Assembly: GCA_963828965.1 (NCBI GenBank)
Contig: CAWHGL010000004.1
Location: 140,533-204,532, forward strand
From: an uncultured Chloroflexia bacterium
GTDB taxonomy: Bacteria; Chloroflexota; Limnocylindria; Limnocylindrales; CSP1-4
DNA: 64,000 nt
Direction of reading: 5' to 3'
Shown here: piece by piece, positions 8,883 through 46,237 of the stretch
Position numbering within the stretch: the first letter of the stretch is position 1
How the letters are laid out: every line of letters starts with the position of its first letter
Position numbers and translations under genes: made by a program
Notes under the pieces: generated by a model
The model's input: the letters and a program-made list of their open reading frames with translations, nothing else
Told to the model about the DNA's origin: nothing
Databases searched by the model: none

Positions 8883-9689
8883 ATGCCGACGATCGACGCC
8901 AACGGGCTGCGCATCGGCTACGACGTGGCCGGGGCCGGTCCTCCGCTGATCCTGCTCCATGGCGCCACCTCCACCGGATCGCGCGACTTCCGTGGCCAGC
9001 TGCCGAGCCTGCGCAAGGCCTTCCGTTGCTTCACGCCGGACGCGCGTGGCCATGGGCGGACCCGCTGGGACACCGCCACGGACGGGTTCGTCGCGGCCTG
9101 GCTCGCGGACGACGCCCTGGCCTTCGCCGACGCGCTGGGGCTGGCGACGTTCCACCTGCTGGGGTTCTCGCTCGGGGCGATGGCCTCGCTGAACGTCGCT
9201 GTCCGGGCCCCCGAGCGCCTGCGCACCCTCGTCGTCGTCGGGATCTCCACCGAGCGCGAGCCGCGCGCCAGCGTCGCGCGGCGCCTGATGGACCCGATCC
9301 GGATCGACCGCGACGACCCGGCCTGGGCGGCCGACCTCGCCGCGCGACACGACCCGGTGCAGGGCGCCGGGGCGTGGCGGTCGCTGCTGCCGGCGATCGC
9401 CGCCGACGTCGCGGTCCAGCCGCTGCTCACGCCGAAGCAGGTCCGGACGATCGACCCACCGACACTCGTGGCGGTCGGGGACCGCGATCCGTTCGTGCCC
9501 GTCGACCATGCCTGGCGTCTGTCACGATCCGTGCTCGACGGCCGCCTGCTCGTCCTGCCCGAGGCCCGTCACGAGGCGTTCGCCGAGCGCCCGACGATCG
9601 CCACCGAGGCGCTCGGGGCGTTCTATCGATCCGCCGAGACCGTCGCCCGCCGCCGGGCGGCCGACCATCCCCACGAGGAGGCCCCATGA
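8883..9689 (+). CDS. Alpha/beta-fold hydrolase
   Basis: Lies in ORF 8514..9689, starting at MPTIDANGLRIGY. It has the HG oxyanion motif (LILLHGA), the nucleophile elbow GFSLGA, and a C-terminal D...H (GDRDPFVP ... EARHEAF). Confidence 0.8.
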   Translation: MPTIDANGLRIGYDVAGAGPPLILLHGATSTGSRDFRGQLPSLRKAFRCFTPDARGHGRTRWDTATDGFVAAWLADDALAFADALGLATFHLLGFSLGAMASLNVAVRAPERLRTLVVVGISTEREPRASVARRLMDPIRIDRDDPAWAADLAARHDPVQGAGAWRSLLPAIAADVAVQPLLTPKQVRTIDPPTLVAVGDRDPFVPVDHAWRLSRSVLDGRLLVLPEARHEAFAERPTIATEALGAFYRSAETVARRRAADHPHEEAP

Positions 9690-10012
9690 CCACGCTACTC
9701 GCCCTGTACCGCCGGCCCGACGGCGGCCCCGACGCGCTGGCCGAGTTCGAGCGGCGCTACGCCGCGGAGCACCTGCCGCTCGTGGCCGAGACGCCCGGCC
9801 TGCGAGCCACCCGCGTCCAGCGGGTCGCGACGGCGCTGGGGACCGAGACGGATCTCGTGCTCATCACGGCGATGGACTTTGACGACCGCGCGGCGCTCGA
9901 TGCCGGTCTCGGCTCGGATGCGATGCGCGCGGCGGGCCGGAACCTGCGTGAGATCGGCCCGGGGCTCGCGACACTGCTCGTCCTGGAGGACGCACTCGAC
10001 CTGCTCGCGTAG
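9686..10012 (+). CDS. EthD-family protein (TIGR02118-like)
   Basis: Lies in ORF 9026..10012, starting MTTLLALYRRPDGGPDALAEFERRYAAEHLPLVAETPGLR...DFDDRAALDAGLGSDAMRAAGRNL. This pattern is typical of the roughly 100-aa EthD family. There is an ATGA overlap with the hydrolase stop. Confidence 0.7.
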   Translation: MTTLLALYRRPDGGPDALAEFERRYAAEHLPLVAETPGLRATRVQRVATALGTETDLVLITAMDFDDRAALDAGLGSDAMRAAGRNLREIGPGLATLLVLEDALDLLA

Positions 10013-16880: not shown

Positions 16881-18418
16881 TCAGCGCAGGTCGCGTCGCA
16901 ACGCGGACCTTGCCGCGAGATACCCGCCCATCCCATGCACGCCGCCGCCCGGTGGCGTCGACGACGAGGCGAGATAGAGGCCCGGCCCCGCGTGGTACGG
17001 GTCCAGCGCCGGGACCGGCCGGAACAGGAGCTGGCGGATGTCGCTGACACCGGCGTTGATGTCGCCACCGACGTAGTTCGCGTCGTGGGCCTCCATCTGG
17101 GCCGGCGCGTGCGTCGAGCGCGCCAGGACCCGGTCGCGGAAGCCCGGCGCGAAGCGCTCCATCTGGCCCTCGATCGCGGCGGTCATGTCGACGTCCGAGC
17201 CGTTGGGCACGTGGCAGTACGCCCAGGCGGTCGTCCTGCCCTCCGGGGCCCGCGACGTGTCCCACGGGTGGTATTGGACGACGAGCGTGAACGGCCGGTC
17301 GGGATGCCGGCCCGCGCCGACCTCGCGTTCGGAGGCGACGACCTCGGCCGCGGTCCCGCCCAGGTGGACGGTCGCAGCGCGACGAAGGCCGTCGGCGGTC
17401 CACGGGATGGGTCCGTCGAGCGCCCAGTCGACCTTGAACACGCCCGGCCCGTAGCGGAACGCCTCGTATCGACGCCGGGTCCGCGACGGCAGCCGGTCGC
17501 CAGCGATCGCCGCCAGCGCCGTCGGGGTGGTGTCGAAGATGACGGCCCGCGCCGCCGGCAACTCGGCCAGTGTCGTGACCCGCTGCCCGACGACGATCTC
17601 GCCGCCGAGGTCGCGGATCTCGCCCGCGAGCGCCTCCGCCACCGCCGCCGAGCCGCCGCGGATCATCGGCCAGCCGACCGCGTGGGCGTACATGCCGAGG
17701 ACCAGTCCGAACGACGCCGTCAGTGGCCGCTCCAGCGGCACCATCGAATGGGCAGCAAGGCCGGCGAACAGGGCGCGCGCGGCATCGCCATGGAACGAGC
17801 CCTCGGCCAGGCCGCTGGCCGAGCGCAGGGCCGGCAGACCGAAGCGCATGAGCGCCAGCGGGTGACGCGGCACGTGGACGACCGGTCGGAGCAGCTCTCC
17901 GGACAGCTTGCCGGCGTCGCGCGTCAACGGTCCGAACAAGGAGCGCCAGGCCTTGCCGTCGCCCGCCTTCCGCCCTGCCCGCCCTCGGCGAGCCCGGCCC
18001 CGGTCGCCGCGACGGACCGCTCCAGGACGGCGGCGCGGCCACCGTCGAGGGCATGGGCCACGGGAGCGTCCGGATGGACGATGTCCACGCCACGAGCGGC
18101 CAGGTCGACCATCCGGAAGAACGGCGACGCGGCGGTCAGCGGCAGGATCGTCGAGCAGACGTCGTGGCGGAACCCGGGGAGGGTCAGCTCCTGGGTCCGT
18201 GTCCCGCCGCCGATCGTGTCGGCCGCCTCGATGACCCGCACCGACCGGCCGGCGCGGGCCAGCGTCAGGGCGGCCGCCAGGCCGTTGGGCCCTGCGCCGA
18301 CGACGATCGCGTCGAGCGCCGGACCGGTCACGTCCGTCCCCCCGGCGACCGGAAGCGTCGCGGCCGCCACGACGGGGTGGGACGACGGTCGGACCCCCCT
18401 CGGCCCGACCGTCGTCAC
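16881..18418 (-). pseudogene. FAD-dependent oxidoreductase (phytoene desaturase/CrtI-like family), one frame change
   Basis: The N-terminal Rossmann motif DAIVVGAGPNGLAAALTLARAGRSVRVIEAADTIGGG is in the frame of ORF 17924..18733. The C-terminal 352 aa are in ORF 16881..17939. The join (...AGLAEG / AGDGKAWRSLFGPLTRDAGK) lies in a G-rich stretch at about 17950-17985. Proposed start is the GTG at 18418, overlapping the upstream stop (GTGA). 18331 is an alternative start. Confidence 0.7.
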
Positions 18419-19208
18419 CCCTTGCGGGAGATCCAGCGGACCGGTGCCGTGAGGGTGTGGCGGGCGGTGCGCAGCGTCGCGCTGTTGCGCACGTTGCGGG
18501 CGTGCCGCCACTGGCGGCGCTTGTCGATGCAGACGATCTGGGTGTCGACCCGCGGGTCCGCGTTGCCCATCGCCTTGGCGACGTTCGACAGCGTCTCGCG
18601 CCAGAAGCGGTCGTTCATCCGATTGCCGCCCAGCATGTAGGCGAGCTCGTCGAACGGGTCGGAGGTGCGTTCCAGGGCCTGCGCCTGGAGGACGGTCGCC
18701 TCGCCGTCGCGATAGGCGGAGAAGGTGATCCACGCCGACAGGGTATGGCCCTCGGGGGTCATGAACGTGAAGGACTCGTCGTCGGCGTAGATGACCATGA
18801 CGCCGGTCGAGAGCTTGACCGGCGAGCCCGGGACGGGCGCGATGTCGAGCAGGGCGACCTCGCCGGGGGCGATGCCCGCGAGCGGGGCGTAGAACCGCGC
18901 GCCCTTGGGCCAGAACGTCGGGAAGCGCTCCTTCCAGGCCGCGACGACCTCCTGGGGCGTCAGCGATCCGTCGAGCTCGACGCGGAACGTCTTCTGCCAG
19001 AGCTGTCCGAAGCCCTGCAGCGGCCCCGACACGCGCTTGCCGGTGACGGAATCGACCTTGGCGCCGGTGACGCCGGTCGCCGACAGGCGGTCGACGGGCT
19101 TGGCCCAGTTGGCGGCGTCGCGCGCCGGGCCGACGTCGCCGGCGTGCTCGGGGAAGGGGTCGGGGTGGTGGTGGTCGGGGTCGGGATCGTCGGTTCGGTC
19201 ATCGTCAT
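18415..19208 (-). CDS. Conserved hypothetical protein; the 5' end is ambiguous or frame-shifted
   Basis: ORF 18415..19032 reads GFGQLWQKTFRVELDG...TPEGHTLSAWITFSAY.... The same frame continues upstream as plausible protein (DPFPEHAGDVGPARDAANWAKPVDRLSATGVTGAKVDSVTGKR) with no start codon. The only ATG (19208, MTMTEPTIPTP) is in another frame, 5 nt after the STAS stop. Confidence 0.55.
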
Positions 19209-19213
19209 CGCCG

Positions 19214-19561
19214 TCAGCCTTCCGCGGCCGCGATGGCCGCCGCTTCGGTGTCGTGGATCTCGATCGCTTCCTCGAGCCGGGTCAGCGCGAGGATCTCGCG
19301 GTAGTGGTTCGACAGGCCCGTCGCCAGCAGGCGGATGGCGCTGCGCTGGGCGCGGACGAGGAGCGTCACGAGCAGGCCGATGCCACCCGAGTTCATGTAC
19401 TCCATCTGCGTGAAGTCGAGCACCACCGCCGTCGCACCGTCGTCGACGGCCTGGGTGAAGCCGGCCATGAGCTCGGCTTCGCTGCCCGAGGTGACATCAC
19501 CGGAGATGCGCAGGATCGCGACGGTGCCGACGCGATCGAGGCCGATCATGGTCGTGGTCAT
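19214..19561 (-). CDS. STAS-domain anti-sigma-factor antagonist (RsbV/SpoIIAA-like), copy 1
   Basis: 115 aa. LDFTQMEYMNSGGIGLLVTLL carries the conserved phosphorylatable Ser context. C-terminus is HYREILALTRLEEAIEI. Confidence 0.85.
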   Translation of the reverse strand: MTTTMIGLDRVGTVAILRISGDVTSGSEAELMAGFTQAVDDGATAVVLDFTQMEYMNSGGIGLLVTLLVRAQRSAIRLLATGLSNHYREILALTRLEEAIEIHDTEAAAIAAAEG

Positions 19562-19890
19562 GCGGCGTCTCCTTCGACGATGTCCATGAAGTCGGACAGG
19601 CGGGTGATCCGGAAGATCTCGCGGTAGTGCGGGGTGAGGCCCACGGCCCGCACGCCACGGCCGTCGCGCCGGGCGTCGGCGAGCAGCCGGACGACGAGCG
19701 CGATGCCCGTGCTGTTGATGTAGCCCACGTCGTGGAAGTCGAGGGTCATCCGCTTCGACCCGATCGCGACCACCTCGCCGTACGCCGCGTTGAGCGTGTC
19801 GTCGGCGCGGCTGTCGAGGTCACCGCGCATCCGGACGCGGACCTCGTCGGGGACATCCTCGACCTGGGCTCCGAACCGGCGGTCATCCAT
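19558..19890 (-). CDS. STAS-domain anti-sigma-factor antagonist (RsbV/SpoIIAA-like), copy 2
   Basis: 110 aa. LDFHDVGYINSTGIALVVRLL has the Ser/Thr in the conserved position, followed by HYREIFRITRLSDFMDI. It overlaps copy 1 by 4 nt. Confidence 0.85.
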   Translation of the reverse strand: MDDRRFGAQVEDVPDEVRVRMRGDLDSRADDTLNAAYGEVVAIGSKRMTLDFHDVGYINSTGIALVVRLLADARRDGRGVRAVGLTPHYREIFRITRLSDFMDIVEGDAA

Positions 19891-21433
19891 GGCTGGTCTC
19901 CTGGCGGGCCAGCCGCAACGTGACGGTCTGGGTCCCCGCGTCGTCGTCGGTCGTCACGTCCATCGCGTCGACCATGTGCTCGATGAGGAAGAGCCCCCAC
20001 CCGCGCGGCTTCTGCTCGCCGGCGAGCTTGCGCTCGATGTCGGGGGTCTCGGCGTCGCTCGGGACGGTGCCGGACAGGGCGTGGTCGGTGACGCGCACGA
20101 TGACGTCGTCGGGCGTGACGGCGACTTCGACGTCGAACGGGACGTCGTCGCGACCCTGGCTGCCGTATTCGATGGCGTTCATCGCCGCCTCGCTGACGGC
20201 GGTCTTGAGGCGTTCGAGACGGTCGGACGAGAGGCCGAGATCGGCGATCGCGGCCGCCACCCGGTCCATCGCCTCACGCTCGTTGCCGGTCGTGCCCGGC
20301 AGGCTGAAGGCCGTCAGCGCGGTCGAGCCGATGTGGCCGTCGTCGTCGGCCACGCCGGCCGCGCGACGGAGGGTCACGAGCGTGATGTCGTCCTCCTGCT
20401 CGTGCTCGGTCCCGGTGAAGCCGTGGAGCGTCTCGAGCAGCCGGTCGAGCAGCTCGCTGCCGGCGTCGTCGATGCGCAGGGCCTCGCGCAGGCGGCCGAA
20501 GCCGAACATCTCGCGGGCGTCGTCGTGTGCCTCGATCAGGCCGTCGCTGTAGAGCAGGACGTTGCTGTCGGGCGCGATGTCGCTCTCGGTCTCGTCGTAG
20601 CGCATCCCGGCCATGAGCCCCAGGGGCATGCCGGTCGCCCGGATCTCGGTGACCTCGTCCCCGGTGCGCACGAACGGCAGGTTGTGGCCGGCGTTGGCCA
20701 GCACGATGTGGCCGGTGGTCGGGTCGAGGACCGCGAACAGGCAGGTCACGAACATCTTGGCCGGCATCTCGGGCACGAGCAGGTCGTTGGCCCGCGACAG
20801 GATCTCGCCGGGCGAGTTGCTGCGGGACGCCTCGGCGCGGAGGATGCTGTGGGTCCGGGCCATGACCAGTGCCGCGGGCACGCCCTTGTCCGTGACGTCG
20901 CCGACGGCGATGCCGATGCGCCCGTCGGGCATCTCGACGAAGTCGTAGAAGTCGCCACCGACCGCGCGGGCCGGACCGTAGTACGCGGCGACCTGCCACT
21001 GCGGCAGCTGCGGCAGCTGGCGCGGCAGGAACTGCTGCTGGATGAGCGTCGCGACGCGCAGCTCCTGGGCGAGACGCTCCTTCTCGGCGGCCTCGTTGGC
21101 CTGCTCGCGGACGAGCTGCGCGACCCGGATCGCGGGCGCGGCCTGCGCGGCGAGGGTCGCCAGGAGGCGGCGGTCGTCGGTCGAGTAGTCCTGCTCGGAC
21201 AGGCGCGGGCCGAGGTTGAGCGTGCCGATGAGCTCGCCCTGCGACACGAGCGGCACGACCAGGGCCACGCCCGCATCGCGGAGGGCCGTGACCGCCGGCG
21301 ACTCGAGATCGAGCCGGGCGATGTCGACCGGGCCAGGGGCGGACTGCAGGTAGGCGAGGAGCGGATCGGACTCGGGGATGTCGACGGCGACGCGAGACCG
21401 CATCGGGTGCGGCGGACACGGTGGGCGTGGCAT
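19883..21433 (-). CDS. GAF - PP2C (SpoIIE/RsbU-type) phosphatase - HATPase_c (RsbW-type kinase) fusion protein
   Basis: 516 aa. The GAF-like part is VPLVSQGELIGTLNLGPRLSEQDYSTDDRRLLATLAAQAAPAIRVAQLV. The PP2C part is GGDFYDFVEMPDGRIGIAVGDVTDKGVPAAL...FVTCLFAVLDP...ANAGHN...LLYSDGLIEA. The C-terminal RsbW-like part is LKTAVSEAAMNAIEYG...VRVTD...RGWGLFLIEHMVD. The N-terminus may really begin at 21521/21533 (MRHEMTELTRPIRRLLGR in a second frame). Confidence 0.85.
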   Translation of the reverse strand: MPRPPCPPHPMRSRVAVDIPESDPLLAYLQSAPGPVDIARLDLESPAVTALRDAGVALVVPLVSQGELIGTLNLGPRLSEQDYSTDDRRLLATLAAQAAPAIRVAQLVREQANEAAEKERLAQELRVATLIQQQFLPRQLPQLPQWQVAAYYGPARAVGGDFYDFVEMPDGRIGIAVGDVTDKGVPAALVMARTHSILRAEASRSNSPGEILSRANDLLVPEMPAKMFVTCLFAVLDPTTGHIVLANAGHNLPFVRTGDEVTEIRATGMPLGLMAGMRYDETESDIAPDSNVLLYSDGLIEAHDDAREMFGFGRLREALRIDDAGSELLDRLLETLHGFTGTEHEQEDDITLVTLRRAAGVADDDGHIGSTALTAFSLPGTTGNEREAMDRVAAAIADLGLSSDRLERLKTAVSEAAMNAIEYGSQGRDDVPFDVEVAVTPDDVIVRVTDHALSGTVPSDAETPDIERKLAGEQKPRGWGLFLIEHMVDAMDVTTDDDAGTQTVTLRLARQETSHG

Positions 21434-21559
21434 CGGACGCTGCCGGGACGTCGACCGCGGGGGCGGTCGTGCGATCCCCGCGCCCGAGGAGGCGGCGGAT
21501 GGGGCGGGTCAGTTCGGTCATCTCGTGCCTCATGCTGGGACCTGCTCGTCCGGGAATCG

Positions 21560-22774
21560 TTACGGCTCGGCGCGGCGCAGCCAGAGGCCGACGAGGGCCG
21601 GGGCCACGGAGGCCCGGACCGTGTCGTCGAGGTCGTCGGCGAGGGTCTGGAGGTCCACTTCGTCGCGGAGTCGCTCCGCGAATGCGTCGGCTATGCGCGC
21701 GCCGTCGTACCGGGACCGATCGAAGCGGCGATCGACGGCGCGCTGGACATAGCGTCGGACGGGCTGAAAGAGCGCGAACGCGAGGAGCGTCGAGACGGCG
21801 ACGGCGAGGGTCTCTCCTTCAGTCTCGCCCCGGGTGACGCCGGCCAGGATGGCCTGCGACGCCAGGACGCCGGCGACGAAAACCGCGACCAGGATGCCCG
21901 TCACGACCGCCCAGGACACCGTCCGCGAGACGATCCGGTCGATGTCGTACAGCCGGTAGCGGAGGATCGCGATACCGATCGCGATCGGGATCAGAGTGCC
22001 GCCCAGCACGCTCCCGACGTCGATGAGGTCGGCCGGTCCGATGTCGGTCGAGAACGACAGGGGGAACAGGACAGCGGTCAGCGATACGGCGGCGACGAGC
22101 CACTTCATCTGCGCCTTCTCGACCCCGCTCGAGCGGCGGTAGCGCGCGACGATCCCCGCGACCGCGAGCGCAAGGGCGAGGAAGATCGCGATCGCACTCA
22201 CGGCGCCCCCCACTTCGGATACGGCCGTCGGGACATCCGGCAGGGCGAACGGGTTCGGGACCGGCTGGTCCTTGCTCGGGACCCACGGGCCGATCGTCTG
22301 GAGGACGACGCCGATGCCGAGGAGAGCGACGCTCGTGGCCACCGGGAATCGCCACCGCGAACCCGGCAGGCGACCGTCCGGGAAGACGAGAGCGACGGCA
22401 GGGAAAAGCAGAAAGAGGCCCGGCAGGAGGGCAACTGTGGCCCACCAGGCGATGAGGCCGCCGGCGGTCGGTGCGATGTCTCCGCGCTCATGGAGGACGA
22501 CCGCGAGGGGCCAGCAGATGAACACACTCATCACCACGAGCGCCCCGACGATCAGGAGCCACGCGATCCGGTTGCCCGGGACTCGCCAGTCGATGATGAC
22601 GCCGACCCCGACGGCGCTCAGGACCAGCAGGCCGATGGCGTTGACGAAGACGCTCAAGCCGCCAGCGTCGGCGACGAACAAATCCCCGGCCTGGATCGCA
22701 AGGATGTTGCCGACGACCAGCATCCCGACGGCCAGGGCGAGGGCGGCGACCAGGAGCGCACGGCGCAGGCTCAT
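21560..22774 (-). CDS. Polytopic membrane protein, kinase-less sensor-like family, paralog A
   Basis: 404 aa, from MSLRRALLVAALALAV within ORF 21560..23878. About 10 hydrophobic segments. Motifs: WRVPGNRIAWLL, FPDGRLPGSRW, RYRRSSGVEKAQMKWL, RYRLYDIDRIVSR, LFQPVRRYVQRAVDRRFDRSRYD, LWLR. Confidence 0.8.
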   Translation of the reverse strand: MSLRRALLVAALALAVGMLVVGNILAIQAGDLFVADAGGLSVFVNAIGLLVLSAVGVGVIIDWRVPGNRIAWLLIVGALVVMSVFICWPLAVVLHERGDIAPTAGGLIAWWATVALLPGLFLLFPAVALVFPDGRLPGSRWRFPVATSVALLGIGVVLQTIGPWVPSKDQPVPNPFALPDVPTAVSEVGGAVSAIAIFLALALAVAGIVARYRRSSGVEKAQMKWLVAAVSLTAVLFPLSFSTDIGPADLIDVGSVLGGTLIPIAIGIAILRYRLYDIDRIVSRTVSWAVVTGILVAVFVAGVLASQAILAGVTRGETEGETLAVAVSTLLAFALFQPVRRYVQRAVDRRFDRSRYDGARIADAFAERLRDEVDLQTLADDLDDTVRASVAPALVGLWLRRAEP

Positions 22775-23958
22775 TGCGCCCGCCGGGTCCCCAGCCAGAC
22801 GCCGATGCCGTTCGGATGGACGGCGGCGGCGGCGGTCGCGTCGAGCTCGGCGATGAGCGCTTCGAGACCGATCTCGTCGCGAAGTCGATCCGCGAAGGCG
22901 GCCGCCATCCGCTCGCCGTCGTAGCGACTGCGGTCGAAGCGCCGGTCGACGGCGTGCTGCACGCGTCGCCGGACCGGCTGGAACAGGGCGAAGGCCACGA
23001 GCGTGGAGGCAGCTACAGCCAGCGTCTCGCCCTGCGTGACGTCGGTCAGGGCCGTCTGAAGGGCGAGCACGCCACCCACGAACACCAGCGCCAGCACCCC
23101 GGTCACGATCGCCCATCCGATCGTGCGACCGACGATCCGATCGATGTCGTACAGGCGGTAGCGCATGACGGCGAACCCGATGGCCAGGGGCACGCAGGCG
23201 TAGGCCATTACGACGGCGATCCAGGTGAGGCCCAGCGGGTCCTGCTCGGTCGCCACGGAGAACAGCGCCCACAGCGCGGTGGAGATCGCGGCTAGGGCGA
23301 CGGCGGCAGCGAGCCAGCGGTACTGGAGGCGTTCCAGCCCGCTCGACCGTCGCCAGCGCATGATCAGGCTGAGGACGCCCAGGATCACCAGCACGAAGAG
23401 CGTCGGATAGAGCGCGAACAGGCTTGGAACGATCGCCCAGATCGCGGCACCGGGCGCGAGTGCGAGCGGGTTCGGCACCTCGATCTGAAGCGACGAGCGC
23501 GCCGGCGCGAGGACGGTCATCGGCGCGACCGCCATGACCGCCGAGATGAGGATGGCGGCCCCGAGCAGGAGGTGGCTGGGCAGGGCGGCCCGGCCACCAG
23601 GCAGGCGACCGGTCGGGAAGACCAGCGCGAGGGCGAGCAGGCCGACGAACGCGAGACTCCAGCCCCAGCCGCTCGCCACGACGGCCGCCGCATCCTCGGG
23701 GTCGAGCCCACCGGCGAGCATGTCTGCCACCGGGATGGCGACCCGGACGCTGCCGAGGCTCAGCCCCCAGGCGGTGAGGAGCAGCAACCAGCCGATGCTG
23801 TTGCCGGGGCGCCGGATCGCCAGGAACGCCCCGACGCCGCCGAAGGCGACGAACAGCACCACCCCGCCGATCTCCCATATGCGGATGGCCATGGCGACCC
23901 CGACGAGCGTCGAGCCGATGACGAGCAGCGACAGGAGGGACCGACGTCCGGTCCTCAT
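22771..23958 (-). CDS. Polytopic membrane protein, kinase-less sensor-like family, paralog B
   Basis: 395-aa ORF. Motifs: RRPGNSIGWLLL, FPTGRLPGG, RWRRSSGLERLQYRWL, RYRLYDIDRIVGR, LFQPVRRRVQHAVDRRFDRSRYD. ATGA overlap with paralog A. Confidence 0.8.
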   Translation of the reverse strand: MRTGRRSLLSLLVIGSTLVGVAMAIRIWEIGGVVLFVAFGGVGAFLAIRRPGNSIGWLLLLTAWGLSLGSVRVAIPVADMLAGGLDPEDAAAVVASGWGWSLAFVGLLALALVFPTGRLPGGRAALPSHLLLGAAILISAVMAVAPMTVLAPARSSLQIEVPNPLALAPGAAIWAIVPSLFALYPTLFVLVILGVLSLIMRWRRSSGLERLQYRWLAAAVALAAISTALWALFSVATEQDPLGLTWIAVVMAYACVPLAIGFAVMRYRLYDIDRIVGRTIGWAIVTGVLALVFVGGVLALQTALTDVTQGETLAVAASTLVAFALFQPVRRRVQHAVDRRFDRSRYDGERMAAAFADRLRDEIGLEALIAELDATAAAAVHPNGIGVWLGTRRAQ

Positions 23959-25154
23959 CGACGCCCGCCCGCTGGGCGTCGCCAGATCGCCACAGAGCTT
24001 GGCTCCACCGTCCGCCGGATGATGGCGCCGATGGTGTCCGTCAGTCGATCCACGTCCACCACGTCACGGAGCTCCACGACCAGGGCCGCAAGGGCCTGGT
24101 CATGGTCGTAGCGCGACCGATTGAACCGCCGGTCGACGAGCCGCTGCATCCGGAGGCGCACCGGGTTGAACAGCGCCGCCGCCACGAGCGTGGAGATGGC
24201 GACGGCCAGGCTGTTGCCTCGGACGGCCGATCCGAGCACCGACTGGATGGCGATGATCAAGCCACCGAACACGGCGAACAACACGGCGCTGACGCCGGCG
24301 TAGGCGATCGTCCGGCTGATGATCCGGTCGATCTCGAACAGGCGATAGCGCATCACGGCTACCCCGATGGCGATCGGCGTGAGCGGGTAGGCGATCAGAG
24401 CGGGGATCCAGGCGTAGCCCCCGATCGTGTCGAACGCCGCGAAGGTCACGAGGCCGAAGGTGATGGCGCTGACGAGGAACGCCATCGCCGCCAGCAGCCA
24501 GCGGATCTGGAGCCGCTCGACCCCGACCGCGCGGCGATAGCGGACGATGAGGCCGATGACGGCCGCGGCGAGCACGAGGATCGGGATCAGGGTGACGAGC
24601 ACCATCGCGACACCGAGCGCCTCCGGCGTCGGGTCCGGCAGGAACCCTACCGGATTCGGGATCCGGATCTCGGTCGCGCCGTTGGCGCTGAACACGAGTG
24701 TGTGCGCAAAGGCTGGAAGGCTGATCGCGATGACCCCGGCCGCCAGGGCCGCGACACAAGCCGCCCGCGCCCGCCCCCCCGGCAGATGCCCGGACGGGAA
24801 CATCATCGCGACCGCTGCGTGCAGGAGGAATGTCGCACCGCCCGCCCACACCGTGATCCAGGCCCAGATGATCTGCTCGGGGCCGGCGCGCCCGGCCTGC
24901 ATCGCGACCGGATCGAACCATGCCGGGGTGGTCGTGCCGACAAACCCTAAACCGATGGCGATCAGCAGCCATCCGATCACGTTGTCCGGCCGTCGGATGG
25001 CCAGGAATCCGCCGACCAGGCCGAATGAGACCCACTGAGTGAGGGATATGACGTCGGTACCGCCGACCGGGAGGCTGGCGAGCAGCAGCGCCACGACCGC
25101 GATCCAAGCCAGCACCGACAGCAGCCGATCCCGCCGCACGTTCGCCGCGGTCAT
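23955..25154 (-). CDS. Polytopic membrane protein, kinase-less sensor-like family, paralog C
   Basis: 399-aa ORF. Motifs: RRPDNVIGWLL, FPSGHLPGG, RYRRAVGVERLQIRWL, RYRLFEIDRIISR, LFNPVRLRMQRLVDRRFNRSRYD. ATGA overlap with paralog B. Confidence 0.8.
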   Translation of the reverse strand: MTAANVRRDRLLSVLAWIAVVALLLASLPVGGTDVISLTQWVSFGLVGGFLAIRRPDNVIGWLLIAIGLGFVGTTTPAWFDPVAMQAGRAGPEQIIWAWITVWAGGATFLLHAAVAMMFPSGHLPGGRARAACVAALAAGVIAISLPAFAHTLVFSANGATEIRIPNPVGFLPDPTPEALGVAMVLVTLIPILVLAAAVIGLIVRYRRAVGVERLQIRWLLAAMAFLVSAITFGLVTFAAFDTIGGYAWIPALIAYPLTPIAIGVAVMRYRLFEIDRIISRTIAYAGVSAVLFAVFGGLIIAIQSVLGSAVRGNSLAVAISTLVAAALFNPVRLRMQRLVDRRFNRSRYDHDQALAALVVELRDVVDVDRLTDTIGAIIRRTVEPSSVAIWRRPAGGRR

Positions 25155-26383
25155 GGGCGCCCCCCCGCGCGCAGCCAGACACCGGTGCTCGTGGGTTCGA
25201 CCGCCTCGGTCGTGGTCCGCCGCAGCTCGCCGGTGAGGGTCGGGAGGTCAAGCTCGTCACGCAGCCGGCCGGCAAAGCCGGCGACGGTGCGTTCGGCGTC
25301 GTACCGGGCTCGATGGAATCGTCGGTCGACGGTCGTTTGGACCCGAAGCCGGACCGGGTTGAACAGGGCGGCGACGACCAGCGTCGATGCCGCCACCACC
25401 CGGGGATCGAGCTTCGACCCGGGCCCAGCGACCGCCCCCGTGACGAGCGACTGGAGGAGCAGGATCAATCCACCGAAGACCACCAGCAGGAGCGCCGTCA
25501 CGAGCGCGTAGGCGATCGACCTGCTCACGATCCGGTCGATGTCGTACAGGTGATACCGGGTGATGGCGATGGCAACGGCGAACACCGGCAGCCCCAGGCT
25601 GGCCAGGGCCACCGCCCACAGGCCCGGGACAAGCTCGCCGAGCACGACCAGGCTGATCATCAGCGCGGCGCTTGCCACCGCCGAAACCAAGACCCAACGC
25701 ATCTGGACGCGGCGAGTCGGGTCGGCGCCGCGGTATCGGAGGGCGAGATCGACGATCGCCCCCAACCAGGCGAGGGCGAAGGCAAGGACCGCGAGCGGCA
25801 GGGACACTGTCAGGGCGTCGTCGAGGAGGCGGCTCCAGCCGACCGCTCGAAGGATGGGGTCCCGCAGGCTCCCTACCGCGACCGTCACGACGCCGAACAG
25901 CAGCGCGAACTGGATGACCGCACCGAGCCGGCTCGTCCGACGGCCGTCCGGGAACCACGTGATGAGGAGCACGGCGCCGAATAGCAAACCCGCGATCGCC
26001 AGCAAGGTGGATAGCGCGTCCGCCATGTCATAGATCGCCTTGAACGGTCCCAGCAACACACTCCGGACGCCGACGCCCGGCTGCCACCACTCCAGCACGG
26101 TCGTCAGGGCCGCACTCCCCGCGAACAGCAGCCCGATCCCGAGCGCAAGGCGACCGATACCGTGCCCGGGTCGCTTCCAGAGCACCACGACGCCGACGAA
26201 CGTGAACATGAGGGCGCCGTAGATCGTGATCACCGTCGTCAGCGGGTCCTGCTCCGGGCTTCCCAGGGTCCAGATGATCGCCATCAGCGAGGCGATCACG
26301 GCGAACCCGGCCACCGCCGCGAGGGCGACCTCGCGCCGAGCGGGTCCGGTCGCGACGGGCATGAGGCGGGACATGCCGGGCAT
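25151..26383 (-). CDS. Polytopic membrane protein, kinase-less sensor-like family, paralog D
   Basis: 410-aa ORF. Motifs: KRPGHGIGRLAL, FPDGRR, RYRGADPTRRVQMRWV, RYHLYDIDRIVSR, LFNPVRLRVQTTVDRRFHRARYD, VWLR. ATGA overlap with paralog C. The start could be one of the nearby internal Met codons. Confidence 0.8.
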   Translation of the reverse strand: MPGMSRLMPVATGPARREVALAAVAGFAVIASLMAIIWTLGSPEQDPLTTVITIYGALMFTFVGVVVLWKRPGHGIGRLALGIGLLFAGSAALTTVLEWWQPGVGVRSVLLGPFKAIYDMADALSTLLAIAGLLFGAVLLITWFPDGRRTSRLGAVIQFALLFGVVTVAVGSLRDPILRAVGWSRLLDDALTVSLPLAVLAFALAWLGAIVDLALRYRGADPTRRVQMRWVLVSAVASAALMISLVVLGELVPGLWAVALASLGLPVFAVAIAITRYHLYDIDRIVSRSIAYALVTALLLVVFGGLILLLQSLVTGAVAGPGSKLDPRVVAASTLVVAALFNPVRLRVQTTVDRRFHRARYDAERTVAGFAGRLRDELDLPTLTGELRRTTTEAVEPTSTGVWLRAGGRP

Positions 26384-26391
26384 CCTCCACC

Positions 26392-29310
26392 GTGGACGTC
26401 ACTGGAACGTTACGGGACAGGCCCCGCAGTCGCTACCGTTACGCGGTGGCGCACGAACGGCGCGGCAAGCCGCGGCTCGACATCCGACTCCTTGGTCCGC
26501 CCGAGGTCCTCGTCGACGGTCAGCCCCTGCGCGTCGACACCCGCAAGGCGATCGCGATCCTCGCCCTCCTCGGAGCCGAGGGCCGGGCGTTCGCCCGCGA
26601 CGAGCTGGCGGCCCTGCTCTGGCCCGAATCCGACGACATGGCCGCCCGCGGCGCGCTGCGGCGGACGCTTTCGACCATGCGGACCGCCATCGGTGAGGGG
26701 CCGCTGGTCATCGATCGCAGCCGGGTCGACCTCGATCGACGGATGGTCCGCGTCGATCTCGACATCGTCGATACCGCCACACGGTCCGACGACCGTCCGA
26801 CGCTGGCCGCGGCGGCGGCGCTCGCCCACGGGGCGTTCCTGGCCGGTTTCAACCTCCGCGACAGCCCCGAGTTCGACGACTGGCGGGCGGCGCGCGCGGT
26901 CGCGGCCGAGCGGGCGGTGCTGACCGTCCTGGATCGACTCGCCATCGTCGCCGAGGCGGATGGAGACCTGCCGGCCGCCATCGAAGCCGCGTCGCGTCGC
27001 CTGGATCTCGACCCGCTGGACGAGGGCGGCCACGTCCGGCTCATGGACCTCCTCGTCGCGACCGGTGACCGGTCCGCCGCGCTGCGCCAGTACCGGGTCT
27101 GCGTGGCGACGCTCGAGCGCGAGCTCGGCGTGGAGCCGCTCGCCTCGACGACCGCCCGCTACGAGGCGATCCGCGACCAGGATCCCGGCGTCGCGGCCAG
27201 GCCGGTCGAGGCGGCCAAGGCGGCAAGCGCGGCGATCGACGGCGACGGCGCGCAGGCATCCGATCACGACCTGCCGACCGCCTTCCCGCTGGTCGGCCGC
27301 GCCGACAGCCTTGGTGCGGTCCTCGCGGCACGGGCCGCGGCCGCCGGCGGGACTGGCCGGGTCGTCGCGGTCCTCGGCGAGGCCGGGATCGGCAAGACCC
27401 GGCTGGGCGACGAGATCGCGGCCCGCGTTCGAGCCGATGCCGGCGTCGTCCTCGCCGCCACCGCCTACCCGGCCGAGCGGGCGATCGCCTACGGCCCCAT
27501 CGTCGACTGGCTTCGGGCGGCGCTCGCCCTGCCGGACGCTGCCGAGCGCGCGGCCGGTCTGGAGGAAGCGACGCGGATGGAGCTCGCCCGGCTGTTGCCG
27601 GCCATCGAGTCGCACGGCGGGACGGCCCTTCCCGATGGCCCCGGCGCCCACGCTCGGCTCGTGGCTGCGATCGCGGACGGGCTGACCGGCCTCGTCGCCG
27701 GCTCGACGCCCGGACTGCTCTGGATCGACGACGTCCCGTGGCTCGACGCCTCGACCCGCGAGGCTCTCGAGTTCCTGGCGCGAAGGCTCGCCGGTCGTCC
27801 GATCGTCCTGCTCCTGACCGCACGACCCGGCGACCTGGATGCCGACGGACGCGCGTTCGTCGACCGGATGGCCGCGACCCCGGGCGCCGAACGACTCGAG
27901 CTCGCCCGGCTCGACCGGGCGGACGTCGCGACCCTGGTCGGCGTCGGTGCTGGCCCGGGCGGCCCCGACCCCGACGTGGTCGACCGCCTGTCCGTCGCCT
28001 CGGAGGGCCTGCCGCTCTACGTCGTCGAGGCGCTGACCGCCGGCCATGGCGCCGCCGTAGCCGACGCCCTCCCGGCCGGGGTCGGGGCCGTGCTCCGGGA
28101 GCGGCTCGGGGTCGTCGGCGAGACCGCCGGGCAGGTCCTTGCCGCGGCCTCCGTCATCGGACGCTCGTTCGACGTGGCCACGCTTCGCCATGCGAGCGGG
28201 CGGACCGACGACGAGACGGTCGACGCGCTCGACGAGAGCCTGCGCCGCGGGCTCATCCGCGAGGCTCCCGGCGGCTTCGACTTCGCCCACGGCGCGTTGC
28301 GCGATCTCGCCTACGAGCGGACGAGTCTGGCCCGCCGCCGGCTGCTCCACCGGCGTGTCGCCGAGGCGCTGCGCCTGGATCTCGCCGGAAGCGGCCGCGA
28401 CGACCTCGGGCGGCTCGTCCTCATCGCCGGTCACGAGCGTGCCGCCGGCCGGGACGCCGAGGCGGCCGAGGCGTATCGCCAGGCCGGCGAACGTGCGGCC
28501 GAGGTCTTCGCCAACCGCGACGCGATCGCCCACGACGAAGCGGCACTGGCCCTCGGCCATCCCGACCAGGTCGGGCTGTACAGCGCCATCGGGCGTCTGC
28601 GGACCCGGATCGGCGACTACACCGGGGCGATCGCGGCGCTCCAGGCCGCGGCGGCGCTCGCGGGGTCGTCGCGACCTGGCCGGCCTCGAGTGGGCGCTGG
28701 CTCGCGCCCACCTGCGCCGCGGCGACCTCGCTGCGGCCGACCACCATCTGGATGCTGCGGCGGCGGCCGCGCCCGACGATGCCGGTCTGGCCGCCCGCCT
28801 GTCGGTCGACCGGAGCGTCATCCGCCGCCGCCTCGGCGATCAGCCCGGCGCCGCGCTCGCCGCCGCGGACGGCCCTGGCGGAGGCCGACCCGCGCCGGCG
28901 ACCCGATCGCTGCTGGAGCCGCCCACCGGATGCAGGGTCTCGCCGCCCTCGATGGTGGCGATCCGGCCGCGGCCATCGCGGACCTCCAGATCGCTCTGGC
29001 GGCCGCGGCGAACGACCCCGACCCATCCGCCGAGGTCGCCGCGCGGACCGGTCTGGCCATGGCGATGGCCCGGACCGGCGATCTCGATGGGGCGCTGGCC
29101 GAGGGCGACGCCGCGCTCGCGGCCTGCCGACGGATCGGCGACCGACACCTGGAGGCCGCGGTGGAGAACCACCTCGCCGACCTGCTCCACGCGGCGAACC
29201 GCGACGAGGAGGCCATGCCCCACCTGCACCGCGCCGTGGCCGCGTTCGCCGAGGTGGGTGGTGACCCCACAGACCCCGATCCCGGGATCTGGATGCTGTC
29301 CGCCTCGTGA
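26392..29310 (+). CDS. Large SARP/AfsR-like regulator: OmpR-type winged helix + BTAD + NB-ARC/AAA ATPase + TPR
   Basis: 972-aa ORF. The DNA-binding part is LDIRLLGPPEVLVDGQPLRVDTRKAIAILALLG...ELAALLWPE. The BTAD part is DLDPLDEGGHVRLMDLLVATGDRSAALRQYRVCVATLERELGVEP. The P-loop is VLGEAGIGKTRL, followed by C-terminal TPR-like helices. The likely true start is the GTG at 26446. There is an out-of-frame excursion at about 28668-28890 (see findings). Confidence 0.8.
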   Translation: MDVTGTLRDRPRSRYRYAVAHERRGKPRLDIRLLGPPEVLVDGQPLRVDTRKAIAILALLGAEGRAFARDELAALLWPESDDMAARGALRRTLSTMRTAIGEGPLVIDRSRVDLDRRMVRVDLDIVDTATRSDDRPTLAAAAALAHGAFLAGFNLRDSPEFDDWRAARAVAAERAVLTVLDRLAIVAEADGDLPAAIEAASRRLDLDPLDEGGHVRLMDLLVATGDRSAALRQYRVCVATLERELGVEPLASTTARYEAIRDQDPGVAARPVEAAKAASAAIDGDGAQASDHDLPTAFPLVGRADSLGAVLAARAAAAGGTGRVVAVLGEAGIGKTRLGDEIAARVRADAGVVLAATAYPAERAIAYGPIVDWLRAALALPDAAERAAGLEEATRMELARLLPAIESHGGTALPDGPGAHARLVAAIADGLTGLVAGSTPGLLWIDDVPWLDASTREALEFLARRLAGRPIVLLLTARPGDLDADGRAFVDRMAATPGAERLELARLDRADVATLVGVGAGPGGPDPDVVDRLSVASEGLPLYVVEALTAGHGAAVADALPAGVGAVLRERLGVVGETAGQVLAAASVIGRSFDVATLRHASGRTDDETVDALDESLRRGLIREAPGGFDFAHGALRDLAYERTSLARRRLLHRRVAEALRLDLAGSGRDDLGRLVLIAGHERAAGRDAEAAEAYRQAGERAAEVFANRDAIAHDEAALALGHPDQVGLYSAIGRLRTRIGDYTGAIAALQAAAALAGSSRPGRPRVGAGSRPPAPRRPRCGRPPSGCCGGGRARRCRSGRPPVGRPERHPPPPRRSARRRARRRGRPWRRPTRAGDPIAAGAAHRMQGLAALDGGDPAAAIADLQIALAAAANDPDPSAEVAARTGLAMAMARTGDLDGALAEGDAALAACRRIGDRHLEAAVENHLADLLHAANRDEEAMPHLHRAVAAFAEVGGDPTDPDPGIWMLSAS

Positions 29311-31064: not shown

Positions 31065-32279
31065 TCAGCGTCCGTCGTCGCGCAGCCACAACCCCTGGCG
31101 CGCCGGGCGGACGGCCTGATCGATGGTCAGACCGAGGTCGCGCACGAGCGCGTCGATGTCGACCTCGTCGCGCAGCCGCTCGCCGAAGGCATCGATGGTC
31201 CGTTCGCCGTCGACCCGCGCCCGGTCGAAGCGCCGGTCGACGACGCGCTGGACACGCCGACGGATCGGCTGGAAGAGGCTGGCCACGATGAGCGTCGAGA
31301 CGGCGACCGTGATGGTGTCCTCGCCGACCAGTCCGCCGAGCGGACCCTGCAGCAGGAGCACGCTGATCGCATACGCCGCGACGAGTAGCACGGACACGAT
31401 GGCGTACGAGATGCCGCGGCTGATGAGCCGGTCGATCTCGTACAGCCGGTAGCGCACGATCGCGATCCCGATGGCCACGGGGATCGCGTTGAGGCCCAGG
31501 ATCCCGACGCCTTCGAAGATGGCACGCAGATCGGGCGGCGTGAAGAACGAGCAGGCGAAGGCGACCGCGGCGACGCCGGCAGCCGCGGCCAGCCACCGGA
31601 TCTGATGGCGGCCGATGTCATCCGAGCGTCGGTAGCGGAGGACCAGGGAGGCGACCGCCAGGGCGAACATCGGGACGGCCATGACGGTGGCCACCGCCTC
31701 GATGGCCAGCAGGGCGGGCGCCAGCTCGGGGAGATACAGCGGGTTGATCAGGATCGACGACTCCATCAGCTCCCGCTGGCCGAGCAGGGCCTTGAGGTCG
31801 GCGCCTGCGACGGCGAGCGCCGTCCCGACGATCACCCATCGCCAGCGTGGCGAGAGCAAACGCCCGTCCGGAAACACCAGTGGGATGCCGACGAGGACGA
31901 GGACCAGGGAGGGGATGAACACCAGATTCGCGATGAGGCCGGCGATCACCGCATCGGGCTGCTCGACCAGCGCGCCACTGACGCCCGTCCGGGCGATGAC
32001 CCACGACCCGCCCCCGATGAGCAGGGCGAAGCCGACCGTGGCGAACAGCAGCATCGGGCCGATCGGATTACCGGGCACGCGGACGGTCAGGAACGCGCCG
32101 ACGCCACCGAACGCGATCGGCATCGTGACGAAGGTGACGATGTCCATGGGCGTGGCCGCCCAGGTCGTCAGGCTGAGGATCGAGGCCAGCAGGGCGACCC
32201 CGGCGATCGACCATGCGCTGACGACGCGCAGGGAAAGGGAGTGGCGTCGAGCGGCGGGCGCGGCGATCACGAGTGGCAC
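31065..32279 (-). CDS. Polytopic membrane protein, kinase-less sensor-like family, paralog E
   Basis: 404-aa ORF. Motifs: VRVPGNPIGPMLL, FPDGRLLSPRWRW, RYRRSDDIGRHQIRWL, RYRLYEIDRLISR, LFQPIRRRVQRVVDRRFDRARVD, LWLR. Confidence 0.8.
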   Translation of the reverse strand: MPLVIAAPAARRHSLSLRVVSAWSIAGVALLASILSLTTWAATPMDIVTFVTMPIAFGGVGAFLTVRVPGNPIGPMLLFATVGFALLIGGGSWVIARTGVSGALVEQPDAVIAGLIANLVFIPSLVLVLVGIPLVFPDGRLLSPRWRWVIVGTALAVAGADLKALLGQRELMESSILINPLYLPELAPALLAIEAVATVMAVPMFALAVASLVLRYRRSDDIGRHQIRWLAAAAGVAAVAFACSFFTPPDLRAIFEGVGILGLNAIPVAIGIAIVRYRLYEIDRLISRGISYAIVSVLLVAAYAISVLLLQGPLGGLVGEDTITVAVSTLIVASLFQPIRRRVQRVVDRRFDRARVDGERTIDAFGERLRDEVDIDALVRDLGLTIDQAVRPARQGLWLRDDGR

Positions 32280-32306
32280 CTTACCGGCCCGACCGTTCGC
32301 ACATCG

Positions 32307-32771
32307 TTACGGCAGCGCGCCTCGATCGAACCAGATCCGCTCCCCGGTGAACCGCTCCGTGACGGGATCCCAGGGAAACAGGATGAGGACTTCGAGGGCG
32401 ACGGCCAGCCCGGACGGCGCGACGCCCGCCCACGGTCCCTGGTTGGTGCCGGTGAGCGTCGCGACCTCGAACACGCCCTGCGGTCCGACGACGATCTCGC
32501 TCAGCGCGAACGCGTTGTCCGGGAAGGCCGCAAAGAGCTCCGTGTAGAACGCCCGCGCCCCATCGAGCCCGTCCCAGCGCTGGCCGGTGACGACGATCTC
32601 GTACGTGCAGGCGGGGCTGAGCGTCGCGATGAGGCCATCGATGTCGCGGCGGTCCTCCGCGATCGAGTGGCGGACCCACAGGCGCTTGATCCGTCGCAGC
32701 TCGGCCGGATCGAAGCCGCGCGCGAGCCGGGCCTGGATCGGTCCCGGCTCCGGCGCGGGCGACGACGTCAT
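32307..32771 (-). CDS. SnoaL-like / NTF2-superfamily protein (ester-cyclase-like)
   Basis: Lies in ORF 32307..32918, from MTSSPAPEPG. The body reads LWVRHSIAEDRRDIDGLIATLSPACTYEIV...FYTELFAAFPDNAFALSEIVVGPQGVFEVATLTGTNQGPWAG. ATGA overlap with the upstream gene. Confidence 0.65.
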   Translation of the reverse strand: MTSSPAPEPGPIQARLARGFDPAELRRIKRLWVRHSIAEDRRDIDGLIATLSPACTYEIVVTGQRWDGLDGARAFYTELFAAFPDNAFALSEIVVGPQGVFEVATLTGTNQGPWAGVAPSGLAVALEVLILFPWDPVTERFTGERIWFDRGALP

Positions 32772-45825: not shown

Positions 45826-46237
45826 CCGCGGCGCGAGGCGACCAAGCCACCGGCTGATCGGCGCGGGCCAGGTGTCGTCCAGGCACGCCGATCGATCAAC
45901 GGGAGCCAGCCGGGTTCTCTCGCGCTATCGCATCGAATATCGCCCGCACTGGTAACTGGGGCGCTTCGCGGTCGTACCGACCCAGCCTTGGCACGATAGC
46001 CACGCATCGTGAGCGTGCGCAGCGGCGATCCCACGGTTGGCGGCCGCCGATCGTCGTCGTAACGCGCGTCGAACGCGCCGGGATACCAGTCGGGGCGATA
46101 TCGGGCGGGTCAAGGCGTCGGGCTCTCGCGGCCGACCGCGGTCGAAAGGCGGGCGCGAGTCCGGGCCGCAGCCTCCCGCTGTCGAAAGACGCGCCGGAGT
46201 CCTGCCCGGGCTACACGCCACCGACGACCAACGCCGG

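Follow-up and report, generated by a model that had tools for sequence, protein, structure and literature searches.

A putative membrane sensor divided within its GAF domain and linked to a partner-switching gene cluster in Chloroflexota and Actinomycetota

Introduction

How can a series of membrane proteins be wired to a phosphatase/kinase/STAS device if the sigma factor, which is the usual output of such a device, is not encoded beside it? This question is raised by nine minus-strand genes that follow each other from position 26383 down to 16881 in 64,000 nucleotides of DNA from an uncultured Chloroflexia bacterium (assembly GCA_963828965.1, contig CAWHGL010000004.1, positions 140,533–204,532). 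Below, “the window” means this whole stretch, the G+C content of which is ~72%. The gene train encodes four paralogous membrane proteins (D, C, B and A in the order of reading), a fusion protein with a PP2C phosphatase and an RsbW-like kinase domain, two STAS proteins, a hypothetical protein and an FAD oxidoreductase, and a gene for a regulator with SARP, NB-ARC and TPR domains diverges from its upstream end. An inspection of the letters alone (the sequence-only reading) took the train for one transcription unit, in which sensor-like proteins would feed a partner switch. Comparison with related loci suggests another arrangement. With a probability that we put at about 0.6, the locus holds the genes of a divided membrane sensor and of a partner switch, working by phosphorylation, to which it is coupled, and the sensor was broken from a single-chain ancestor inside its GAF domain.

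Results

Membrane paralogs and the fusion protein as candidate parts of one sensor

Relatives were collected with an intact homolog of the fusion protein as a query against 1.84 billion representative proteins, and unsplit forms of 747–1008 amino acids (aa) were found among them. Those of 898–1008 aa have ~400–500 extra N-terminal residues followed by GAF, PP2C and kinase domains, and many relatives of ~750–850 aa have a like architecture without the kinase. The paralogs of the window carry motifs of the input module of unsplit sensors (FPDGR, RYRLYDIDR, DRRF.R.RYD) on separate proteins, and alignment of the paralog family with the unsplit family by hhalign covered the first about 420 columns (probability 100%, E 1.3e-57), ending at LWL. 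Paralog A aligned with the unsplit protein P0247 over residues 99–428 (E 4e-22) and in BLASTP with P0268 over residues 176–401 (E 9e-33, 37% identity), the latter alignment stopping at LWL of the ...SLWL segment. Alignment of the fusion protein begins at residue 436 of P0247 and at residue 404 of P0268. The Pfam GAF match of unsplit proteins spans profile positions 1–130 and starts within their paralog-like part; in the fusion protein it is limited to positions about 53–133, upstream of the SpoIIE (1.3e-51) and HATPase_c_2 (1.9e-19) domains. Thus, the “GAF-PP2C-RsbW” of the sequence-only reading is valid for the phosphatase and the RsbW-like domain, while only the C-terminal part of the GAF domain is there.

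In the AlphaFold2 model of unsplit P0268 (predicted local distance difference test score, pLDDT, 88.4) helix 377–391 and strand 397–401 lead a small GAF-like fold with pLDDT >90. The strand is formed by the VSLRL segment, and the same segment in the lone paralog A is a coil. The model of paralog A (21560–22774, minus strand; pLDDT 87.8) consists of a membrane bundle made up of helices only and, after it, two cytosolic helices, in which we recognise the juxtamembrane helix and the first GAF helix. Its tail ...ALVGLWLRR, corresponding to the terminal strand, is unstructured when modelled alone (pLDDT 54–74); residues P392 and W398 of this tail are invariant in 104 family members. In place of the paralog-like part, split-type fusions have a short basic peptide at the N-terminus and then a variable linker rich in proline, and the half-GAF retains residues found in unsplit relatives. 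Based on the paralog and fusion alignments, the extents of the Pfam GAF matches and the model of P0268, the break point is placed within the GAF domain, so that the paralogs end with its first helix and strand and the fusion protein starts just after them. As judged from these comparisons, the locus arose by gene fission through the GAF domain, and the copy number of the input half varies between genomes from 1 to about 10.

A trivial explanation would be that paralog A and the fusion are a single gene broken by sequencing errors. They do share a reading frame if the fusion is read in the frame of ATG 21433, and the assembly clearly contains indel errors. However, four stop codons lie between them, ~40 residues located between the juxtamembrane helix and the DPL helix of unsplit proteins are missing from the fusion protein, and independent assemblies, including JGI contig L003, show the paralog and the fusion as two separate genes, the latter with its own conserved N-terminus and promoter-like box. 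Since the stop codons and the same two genes in independent assemblies testify against an error, and the split recurs in 30 other loci, this explanation is effectively refuted and hardly deserves further consideration.

It is also conceivable that the paralogs act alone, as decoys or sensors for other partners, and that the truncated GAF is simply a smaller dimerisation domain. The paralogs belong to a very large family of ~400-aa proteins that always end at WLR, the fifth copy in the window stands apart from the fusion gene, and attachment of the paralog tail to the fusion barely extended the Pfam GAF match, an uninformative outcome. Nevertheless, paralog genes were found in 26 of 31 loci with a split-type fusion in two phyla, the half-GAF keeps residues of unsplit relatives, and the tail with its invariant Trp has no structure of its own in the model. 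Moreover, the best-conserved part of the paralogs is the homolog of the piece missing from the fusion: five copies in the window are only 28% identical in the membrane core and 53% identical in the C-terminal 140 residues. Independent action of the paralogs therefore seems quite unlikely to us, and a sensor divided between two proteins remains the preferred reading. It agrees with the functional tie between the paralogs and the phosphatase/kinase/STAS device which was proposed from the letters and is now supported by homology to single-chain membrane-GAF-PP2C(-kinase) proteins in addition to adjacency.

Among paralog homologs, proteins of 590–707 aa were considered as unsplit forms and rejected, being tandem paralogs merged by frameshifts. 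Two soluble relatives with a complete GAF domain (P0293 and P0295) are encoded on contigs shorter than 3 kb. The basic N-terminal peptide of the fusion (21479–21521, minus strand; also in P0002, P0241, P0242, P0244 and P0252; e.g. TRPIRRLLGR, ESIRRTVGR) resembles the juxtamembrane helix PLRRxIQ..DRRF of unsplit proteins and could be its vestige or a docking element.

Components of the cluster

The fusion gene (19883–21521, minus strand) encodes, in this order, the N-terminal peptide, the linker, the partial GAF, a SpoIIE-type PP2C and an RsbW-like HATPase_c_2 domain. Asp-containing motifs of the phosphatase (GGDFYD, GDVTDKG, YSDG and EDDIT) are conserved, as are the N-box E..MNA.E.G and the G2 box RGWGLFLI of the kinase. 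SiaA (6k4e) and Rv1364c (3ke6) were registered as its relatives in PDB. Downstream are the genes of STAS protein 2 (19558–19890, minus strand; 110 aa, Pfam STAS_2 2.3e-12, motif YINSTGIA) and STAS protein 1 (19214–19561, minus strand; 115 aa, Pfam STAS 2e-14, motif YMNSGGIGLL). We aligned both proteins with B. subtilis SpoIIAA to locate the residue equivalent to its Ser58; all 30 orthologs of STAS 1 and all 28 of STAS 2 have an invariant Ser there. A stressosome was considered and rejected, both STAS proteins being single-domain and a separate RsbT-like kinase being absent.

The hypothetical gene (18415–19208, minus strand) codes for a protein of about 264 aa, the ortholog of which in locus L001 is 82.6% identical over 241 aa in tblastn. 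Weak similarity to DUF1990 was detected in 3 of 14 orthologs (best E 2e-4), and this was the only signal, no relative having been found in PDB; below it is called DUF1990-like. The last gene of the train (16881–18331, minus strand) encodes a CrtI/amine-oxidase-type FAD oxidoreductase of about 476 aa.

The other membrane input modules are paralog B (22771–23958), which has no close ortholog in L003 (identity of at most 38%), paralog C (23955–25154), which overlaps its neighbours by ATGA on both sides, paralog D (25151–26374), which matches the paralog profile, and the fifth paralog (31065–32270), which is located outside the train; all of them are on the minus strand. The family is not curated in Pfam or NCBIfam, where some homologs show a weak HisKA_7TM match, a sequence-profile search of PDB returned nothing for the paralogs, and a Foldseek search of PDB with the model of paralog A gave generic helical bundles only (E > 0.01). 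Involvement in anti-phage defence was also considered and rejected, since the cluster has no match to defence families.

The divergent gene (26392–29310, plus strand) encodes an AfsR-like regulator with a SARP DNA-binding domain and BTAD (3e-14), an AAA_16/NOD ATPase (AAA_16 1.2e-16) and TPR; an intact ortholog (L003, 2510–5377) matches EmbR (2fez) over residues 9–262 with E 5.6e-8. Its true start is probably a few codons downstream. In agreement with the sequence-only reading this is the only regulator nearby, and its position is syntenic in at least 14 loci. As for a cognate sigma factor, domain scans found none among the nine genes or the genes flanking them. The statement that there is no sigma factor therefore stands for the unit itself and fails for the window, where a single sigma gene of the extracytoplasmic function (ECF) type was seen at 44268–44894 (plus strand; Sigma70_r2 3e-20, r4 5.7e-13), ~18 kb from the upstream end of the train and with no link to the cluster found.

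Conservation across genomes

We sampled 80 loci from species-representative genomes, together with those fetched by exact protein lookup, and scanned each locus with one profile per cluster component. The split-type fusion was found in 31 loci, that is in the window and 30 others. Candidatus Limnocylindrales and further metagenome bins of Chloroflexota supplied the nearest relatives of the window proteins. Chloroflexota are represented by Limnocylindria-like bins, Ktedonobacter racemifer DSM 44963 and Anaerolineales, and Actinomycetota by Gaiellales, Thermoleophilia, Rubrobacteraceae, Acidimicrobiia and Blastococcus saxobsidens DSM 44509, so that two cultured strains, the Ktedonobacter and the Blastococcus, carry the cluster. 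The linkage expected from the window is thus conserved, and recurrence of the gene set in 30 other loci of two phyla means that the arrangement is not a matter of chance.

The series fusion-STAS-STAS-DUF1990-like was observed in all 31 loci wherever the contig reaches, the oxidoreductase gene usually being next; the DUF1990-like gene is present in every locus whose contig extends that far. Paralogs, 1 to about 10 per locus, were absent only from five loci with cut-off or fragmented contigs. They are mostly placed upstream, as in the window, and downstream of the oxidoreductase or the DUF1990-like gene in L009, L015, L016, L023 and L026. The paralog content turns over fast: between the window and L003 the fusion protein is 93% identical, and only paralogs D (79%) and C (65%) have orthologs. 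The largest arrays, ~8–10 tandem paralogs upstream of one fusion gene, were seen in L014 (1–10000) and L056 (1–9700). In three loci of Chloroflexota the DUF1990-like gene is present as two tandem copies (L009, 12154–13891; L010, 6495–8148; L023, 11934–13589).

Unsplit sensors have similar neighbours. The gene of kinase-bearing P0247 (L084) is followed by one STAS gene and an FAD oxidoreductase gene, the product of which is 56.5% identical to that of the window, and kinase-bearing P0246 is also followed by one STAS gene. Homologs of the oxidoreductase were found on the opposite strand near kinase-less unsplit membrane-GAF-PP2C genes (L036, 3–932; L037, 4912–6318) and on the other side of the regulator (L022, 3380–4888), which suggests that the oxidoreductase and the sensor family are more widely linked.

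Layout of the train and corrected gene models

Direct reading of the window confirmed that all nine genes lie on the minus strand and that most junctions are as tight as had been supposed. D/C, C/B and B/A share the 4-nt ATGA at 25151–25154, 23955–23958 and 22771–22774, the fusion and STAS 2 overlap by 8 nt (ATGGATGA, 19883–19890), STAS 2 and STAS 1 by 4 nt, and ATG 19208 of the DUF1990-like gene is 5 nt away from the stop of STAS 1. From the TAA stop of paralog A (21562–21560) to the fusion there are 126 nt if the annotated ATG 21433 is used, 26 nt to ATG 21533 and 38 nt to ATG 21521. The stop of the DUF1990-like gene (18417–18415) does overlap GTG 18418, as was noted from the letters, but homologs support GTG 18331 as the start of the oxidoreductase, leaving a gap of 83 nt.

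Three of the nine genes, coding for the fusion, the DUF1990-like protein and the oxidoreductase, are not intact open reading frames (ORFs) in the window. Close homologs of the fusion have ~545 aa and begin with M(RHE)MTELTRPIRRLLGR, and exact lookup of the annotated 506-aa protein gave no record. The corresponding start (ATG 21533 or 21521) is out of frame with the remainder owing to one extra base near 21392. ATG 21521 (MTELT...), which agrees with the N-terminus of homologs, is probably the true one. In the DUF1990-like gene the frame changes between about 19180 and 19150, and in the oxidoreductase gene between 17990 and 17960, within a G-rich insertion. PmbA/TldD, fumarase and SARP genes of the window are also broken: the first (36081–37260, minus strand) is divided over two overlapping ORFs with the break at profile position 124/125, the second (5694–6653, minus strand) misses the first 122 profile positions in frame, and the third has an out-of-frame stretch within about 28060–29310 (plus strand), which suggests two indel errors. 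Since other genes of the window and contigs of related long-read metagenome-assembled genomes carry like breaks, the likeliest cause of these frameshifts is assembly rather than biology, and the broken genes point to indel errors throughout the assembly. A called 483-aa domainless gene in L001 (4883–6334, plus strand), antisense to the frameshifted SARP gene, is probably spurious and matches the window only via conserved DNA of the opposite strand.

Promoter-like boxes and the divergent regulator

A scan for consensus sigma-70 promoters found none, and terminators were at the background level, both results being uninformative at 72% G+C. A different element was detected instead. The motif CGTAACGNT has four matches in the window versus 0.37 expected, a number which was not reached in any of 100 shuffles. 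All four fall on the minus strand. Paralog D is preceded by two of them, the fifth paralog by one, and the remaining match is in the gap between A and the fusion gene. The box before D (26382–26443) includes GTAACG at 26413–26408, TGACG at 26401–26397 and the –10-like hexamer GAGGAT at 26387–26382, and the same layout was found in L001, L003, L005 and L025. The box before the fusion (21532–21564) is composed of GTAACG at 21563–21558, which contains the stop TAA of paralog A, GGACG at 21551–21547 and the –10-like CAGCAT at 21537–21532. In the box before the fifth paralog (32278–32311), GTAACG at 32310–32305 is accompanied by GAACG at 32298–32294 and TAAGGT at 32283–32278, with GTG 7 nt later. 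The predicted SARP-binding sequence can be written as CCGTAACGATTCCCGGACG.

The box precedes the fusion gene at the equal position in 23 of the 31 loci, the window included. The bipartite pattern GTAACG-N5-8-N[GA]ACG has 55 matches in 510 kb of these loci and 1–8 in each of 20 Markov simulations used as the background; 51 of 55 are on the cluster strand, 28 stand before the fusion gene and 13 before paralogs, and the rest include matches before the DUF1990-like gene and before a third STAS gene in Ktedonobacter. Two repeats are spaced by a period of 11 nt in 21 of 23 fusion-gene boxes (in L009 it is read as 10), and a third in-phase copy is present in L009, L010, L019 and L026. At a fixed distance of 20 nt from GTAACG all 23 fusion-gene promoters have a hexamer with a conserved A at its second position: TATACT/TATAAT in Ktedonobacter (L017), TACAAT in L019 and L026, TAGAAA and GAGGAT elsewhere. 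Start codons are often located 4–10 nt past the hexamer, and many mRNAs made from these predicted promoters would have little or no leader. Probable start codons are ATG 21521 in the fusion gene, GTG 32270 in the fifth paralog and, in D, ATG 26374, which is preferred since ATG 26383 overlaps the –10-like element.

Several further copies of the motif were registered. One GTAACGGTA lies at 26442–26437 (minus strand), 29 nt upstream of the D box, and is kept in L001 (6302), L003 (5381), L005 (4967) and L025 (6292) despite a diverged spacer; it may be a further site of the regulator or relate to the divergent SARP promoter. The match GTAACG-N6-GAACG at 46059–46075 (plus strand), with TACCAG 19 nt on, is found ~1.2 kb downstream of the sigma gene and is followed by no clear gene; it may be due to chance or mark another member of the regulon. 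In K. racemifer (L017) the third STAS gene (9340–9756, minus strand) is divergent from the fusion and has its own box at 9787 (minus strand) with a perfect TATAAT.

Given the fixed spacing to the –10-like hexamer, the repeats are predicted to fall at about –40 to –19. It is known that the afs box recognised by AfsR is a 22-bp element at –19 to –40 made of two 11-bp repeats, which is bound by two SARP domains of AfsR (PMC10936776). Based on this likeness in geometry and on the SARP-NOD-TPR architecture of the divergent gene product, the cluster probably forms a regulon of the AfsR type, which has three or more promoters in the window. We infer both that the box serves as a promoter and that the SARP protein binds it.

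These boxes bear directly on the model of a single 9.5-kb operon driven by one promoter before D, in which separate sensors would signal to a complete GAF-PP2C-kinase protein. The genes do share one strand, stops and starts overlap within the D-C-B-A and fusion-to-hypothetical blocks, the consensus scan revealed no terminator-like site above background between the blocks, and read-through from the promoter of D is possible. On the other hand, a conserved promoter-like box is placed exactly in the A-to-fusion gap in most loci, and the GAF domain of the fusion is incomplete. Since the paralogs are downstream in several genomes, co-transcription in the order seen in the window is not required. 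The internal promoter between the paralogs and the PP2C gene, which the sequence-only reading itself had named as a sign against one transcription unit, is probably there, so that one unit becomes doubtful and this model as a whole improbable. The same box on each unit argues for co-regulation rather than independence, and the genes of the cluster look co-regulated from several predicted promoters, not necessarily co-transcribed.

The box could also be a promoter of a dedicated alternative sigma factor that is encoded elsewhere and held by the RsbW-like domain, with autoregulation like that of sigB. RsbW-type domains classically bind sigma factors, GTAACG is highly conserved at the –35 position with the fixed spacing to the downstream element, and the box persists in L009 and L086, where the fetched flanks have no SARP gene. 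But the second element repeats the first one at exactly 11 nt, with the third in-phase copy in some loci, which is typical of activator sites; the downstream hexamer resembles the housekeeping –10 (TATAAT, TATACT, TACAAT); and a 20-nt gap is too long for the usual –35/–10 pair. Readings of the box as an ECF-type GGAAC-N16-17-CGT promoter were rejected, as its sequences do not fit by eye. We regard such a sigma factor as unlikely and consider activation by the AfsR-like regulator as the more natural function of the box.

Discussion

Proposed mechanism

Homology shows that the ancestor of the system was one chain, in which a membrane bundle was combined with a GAF-like domain, a PP2C phosphatase and an RsbW-like kinase. 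In the window, paralogs A–D and the fifth copy each retain the bundle and the juxtamembrane helix together with the helix and strand that open the GAF, and one soluble protein retains the rest of the GAF, the phosphatase and the kinase. The terminal strand of a paralog, with its invariant Trp, may dock into the incomplete GAF, rebuild the domain and thereby pass the membrane signal, and diverged input modules may share one catalytic module or compete for it. The balance of phosphatase and kinase would then set phosphorylation of the invariant Ser on both STAS proteins, and these, or the kinase domain, may switch partners by analogy with HsbR/HsbA and CrsR/CrsA. The final target may be encoded elsewhere, as a sigma factor would be, or be a conserved neighbour: the FAD oxidoreductase, the DUF1990-like protein or the AfsR-like regulator. 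The first two are candidate outputs that are conserved even beside unsplit sensors. Expression would be provided by at least three similar activator-type promoters (of D, the fusion and the fifth paralog), probably bound by the AfsR-like regulator. Homology is the basis for the assignment of components, for the fission point, for catalytic and phospho-acceptor residues and for the conserved cluster and box.

A bolder scheme is a mix-and-match receptor, in which up to about ten inputs compete for one phosphatase/kinase by donating the GAF helix and strand, STAS proteins act on the AfsR-like STAND activator or the oxidoreductase rather than on a sigma factor, and the output feeds back on the cluster's own afs-box-like promoters. 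In this complete form the scheme is tentative and we are rather inclined to doubt it.

Several observations weigh against the split sensor under control of the SARP protein. In the chimera of the paralog A tail with the fusion the Pfam GAF score was 38.0 versus 37.4 bits, and N-terminal GAF positions were not recovered. The paralog family comprises more than 4800 clusters, and a PP2C partner may be dispensable for some of its members. The G1 box of the kinase is degenerate in this clade (DHALSG in place of D.GGG of relatives), which leaves its activity uncertain. Some loci, Blastococcus L015 among them, are devoid of the box, and in L009 and L086 it is present without a SARP gene within 8–10 kb; the assignment of the SARP protein is thus based on synteny and geometry.

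Partner-switching modules and SARP activators have each been well studied. Our literature search returned no account of a GAF sensor split in nature or of a partner switch linked to a SARP protein. Three features go beyond the searched literature: a sensor split in the middle of a folded domain with its input half amplified and diversified, a partner switch within an AfsR-type regulon, and the architecture of such a regulon in Chloroflexota. Recurrence of the cluster with a shared box in two phyla points to an undescribed mix-and-match signalling system. If the two halves do reassemble, duplication of only the input half of a receptor would be a cheap way of widening the sensory range and a natural template for engineered modular sensors. 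The predicted start sites, the box and the key tryptophan are specific targets for experiments, and the cluster is available in two cultured strains.

Comparison with known systems

With the RsbU/RsbW/RsbV-type module the cluster shares the PP2C aspartates and single-domain STAS proteins with Ser, but the cognate sigma factor is absent from it. In both NCBIfam and PDB the phosphatase domain is matched best by SiaA, the membrane-anchored PP2C protein of the SiaABCD system of Pseudomonas aeruginosa. SiaA has a small switch protein as its target, and what this protein controls is an enzyme rather than a sigma factor. The SiaA match is, however, far below the family cut-off (59.5 versus 700 bits), and SiaABCD is not known to have a split GAF. 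The SiaB kinase is a separate protein of another type. The closest solved relative spanning both PP2C and kinase is Rv1364c of M. tuberculosis (3ke6; E 2.7e-13, fusion residues 169–466). Rv1364c is a soluble protein whose single chain also includes a PAS input domain and a STAS domain fused to it, and it is not known to have a membrane module or a split. Single-chain membrane-GAF-PP2C(-HATPase) proteins (P0246, P0247, P0265, P0268 and similar), annotated only as SpoIIE family phosphatases, are homologous over the whole length to a paralog plus the fusion. They differ in having one gene, one input module, one STAS gene and a contiguous GAF, which is divided here.

In HsbR/HsbA of P. aeruginosa and CrsR/CrsA of Shewanella oneidensis a protein consisting of an input domain, PP2C and an RsbW-like kinase sets phosphorylation of the adjacently encoded STAS protein, and the targets, FlgM, HsbD and RpoS, are encoded elsewhere (PMC6482189). 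The fusion protein of the window has the same order of input, PP2C and kinase/anti-sigma domains, and a STAS gene is adjacent. The input of HsbR and CrsR is, however, a receiver (REC) domain fed by a phosphorelay, whereas a domain scan found no REC in the fusion, and a partial GAF and separate membrane modules are used here; besides, the cluster includes two STAS genes and the conserved DUF1990-like and oxidoreductase genes. Finally, the AfsR/afs box pair of Streptomyces coelicolor provides a regulator with the same domain order and a site of two 11-bp direct repeats at about –40 to –19, which replaces the –35 element and is followed by a weak –10 (PMC10936776). What differs is the sequence of the repeats, GTAACG/GGACG in our case, the occurrence of the regulator in Chloroflexota as well as Actinomycetota, and the predicted target, which is a signalling cluster instead of antibiotic genes.

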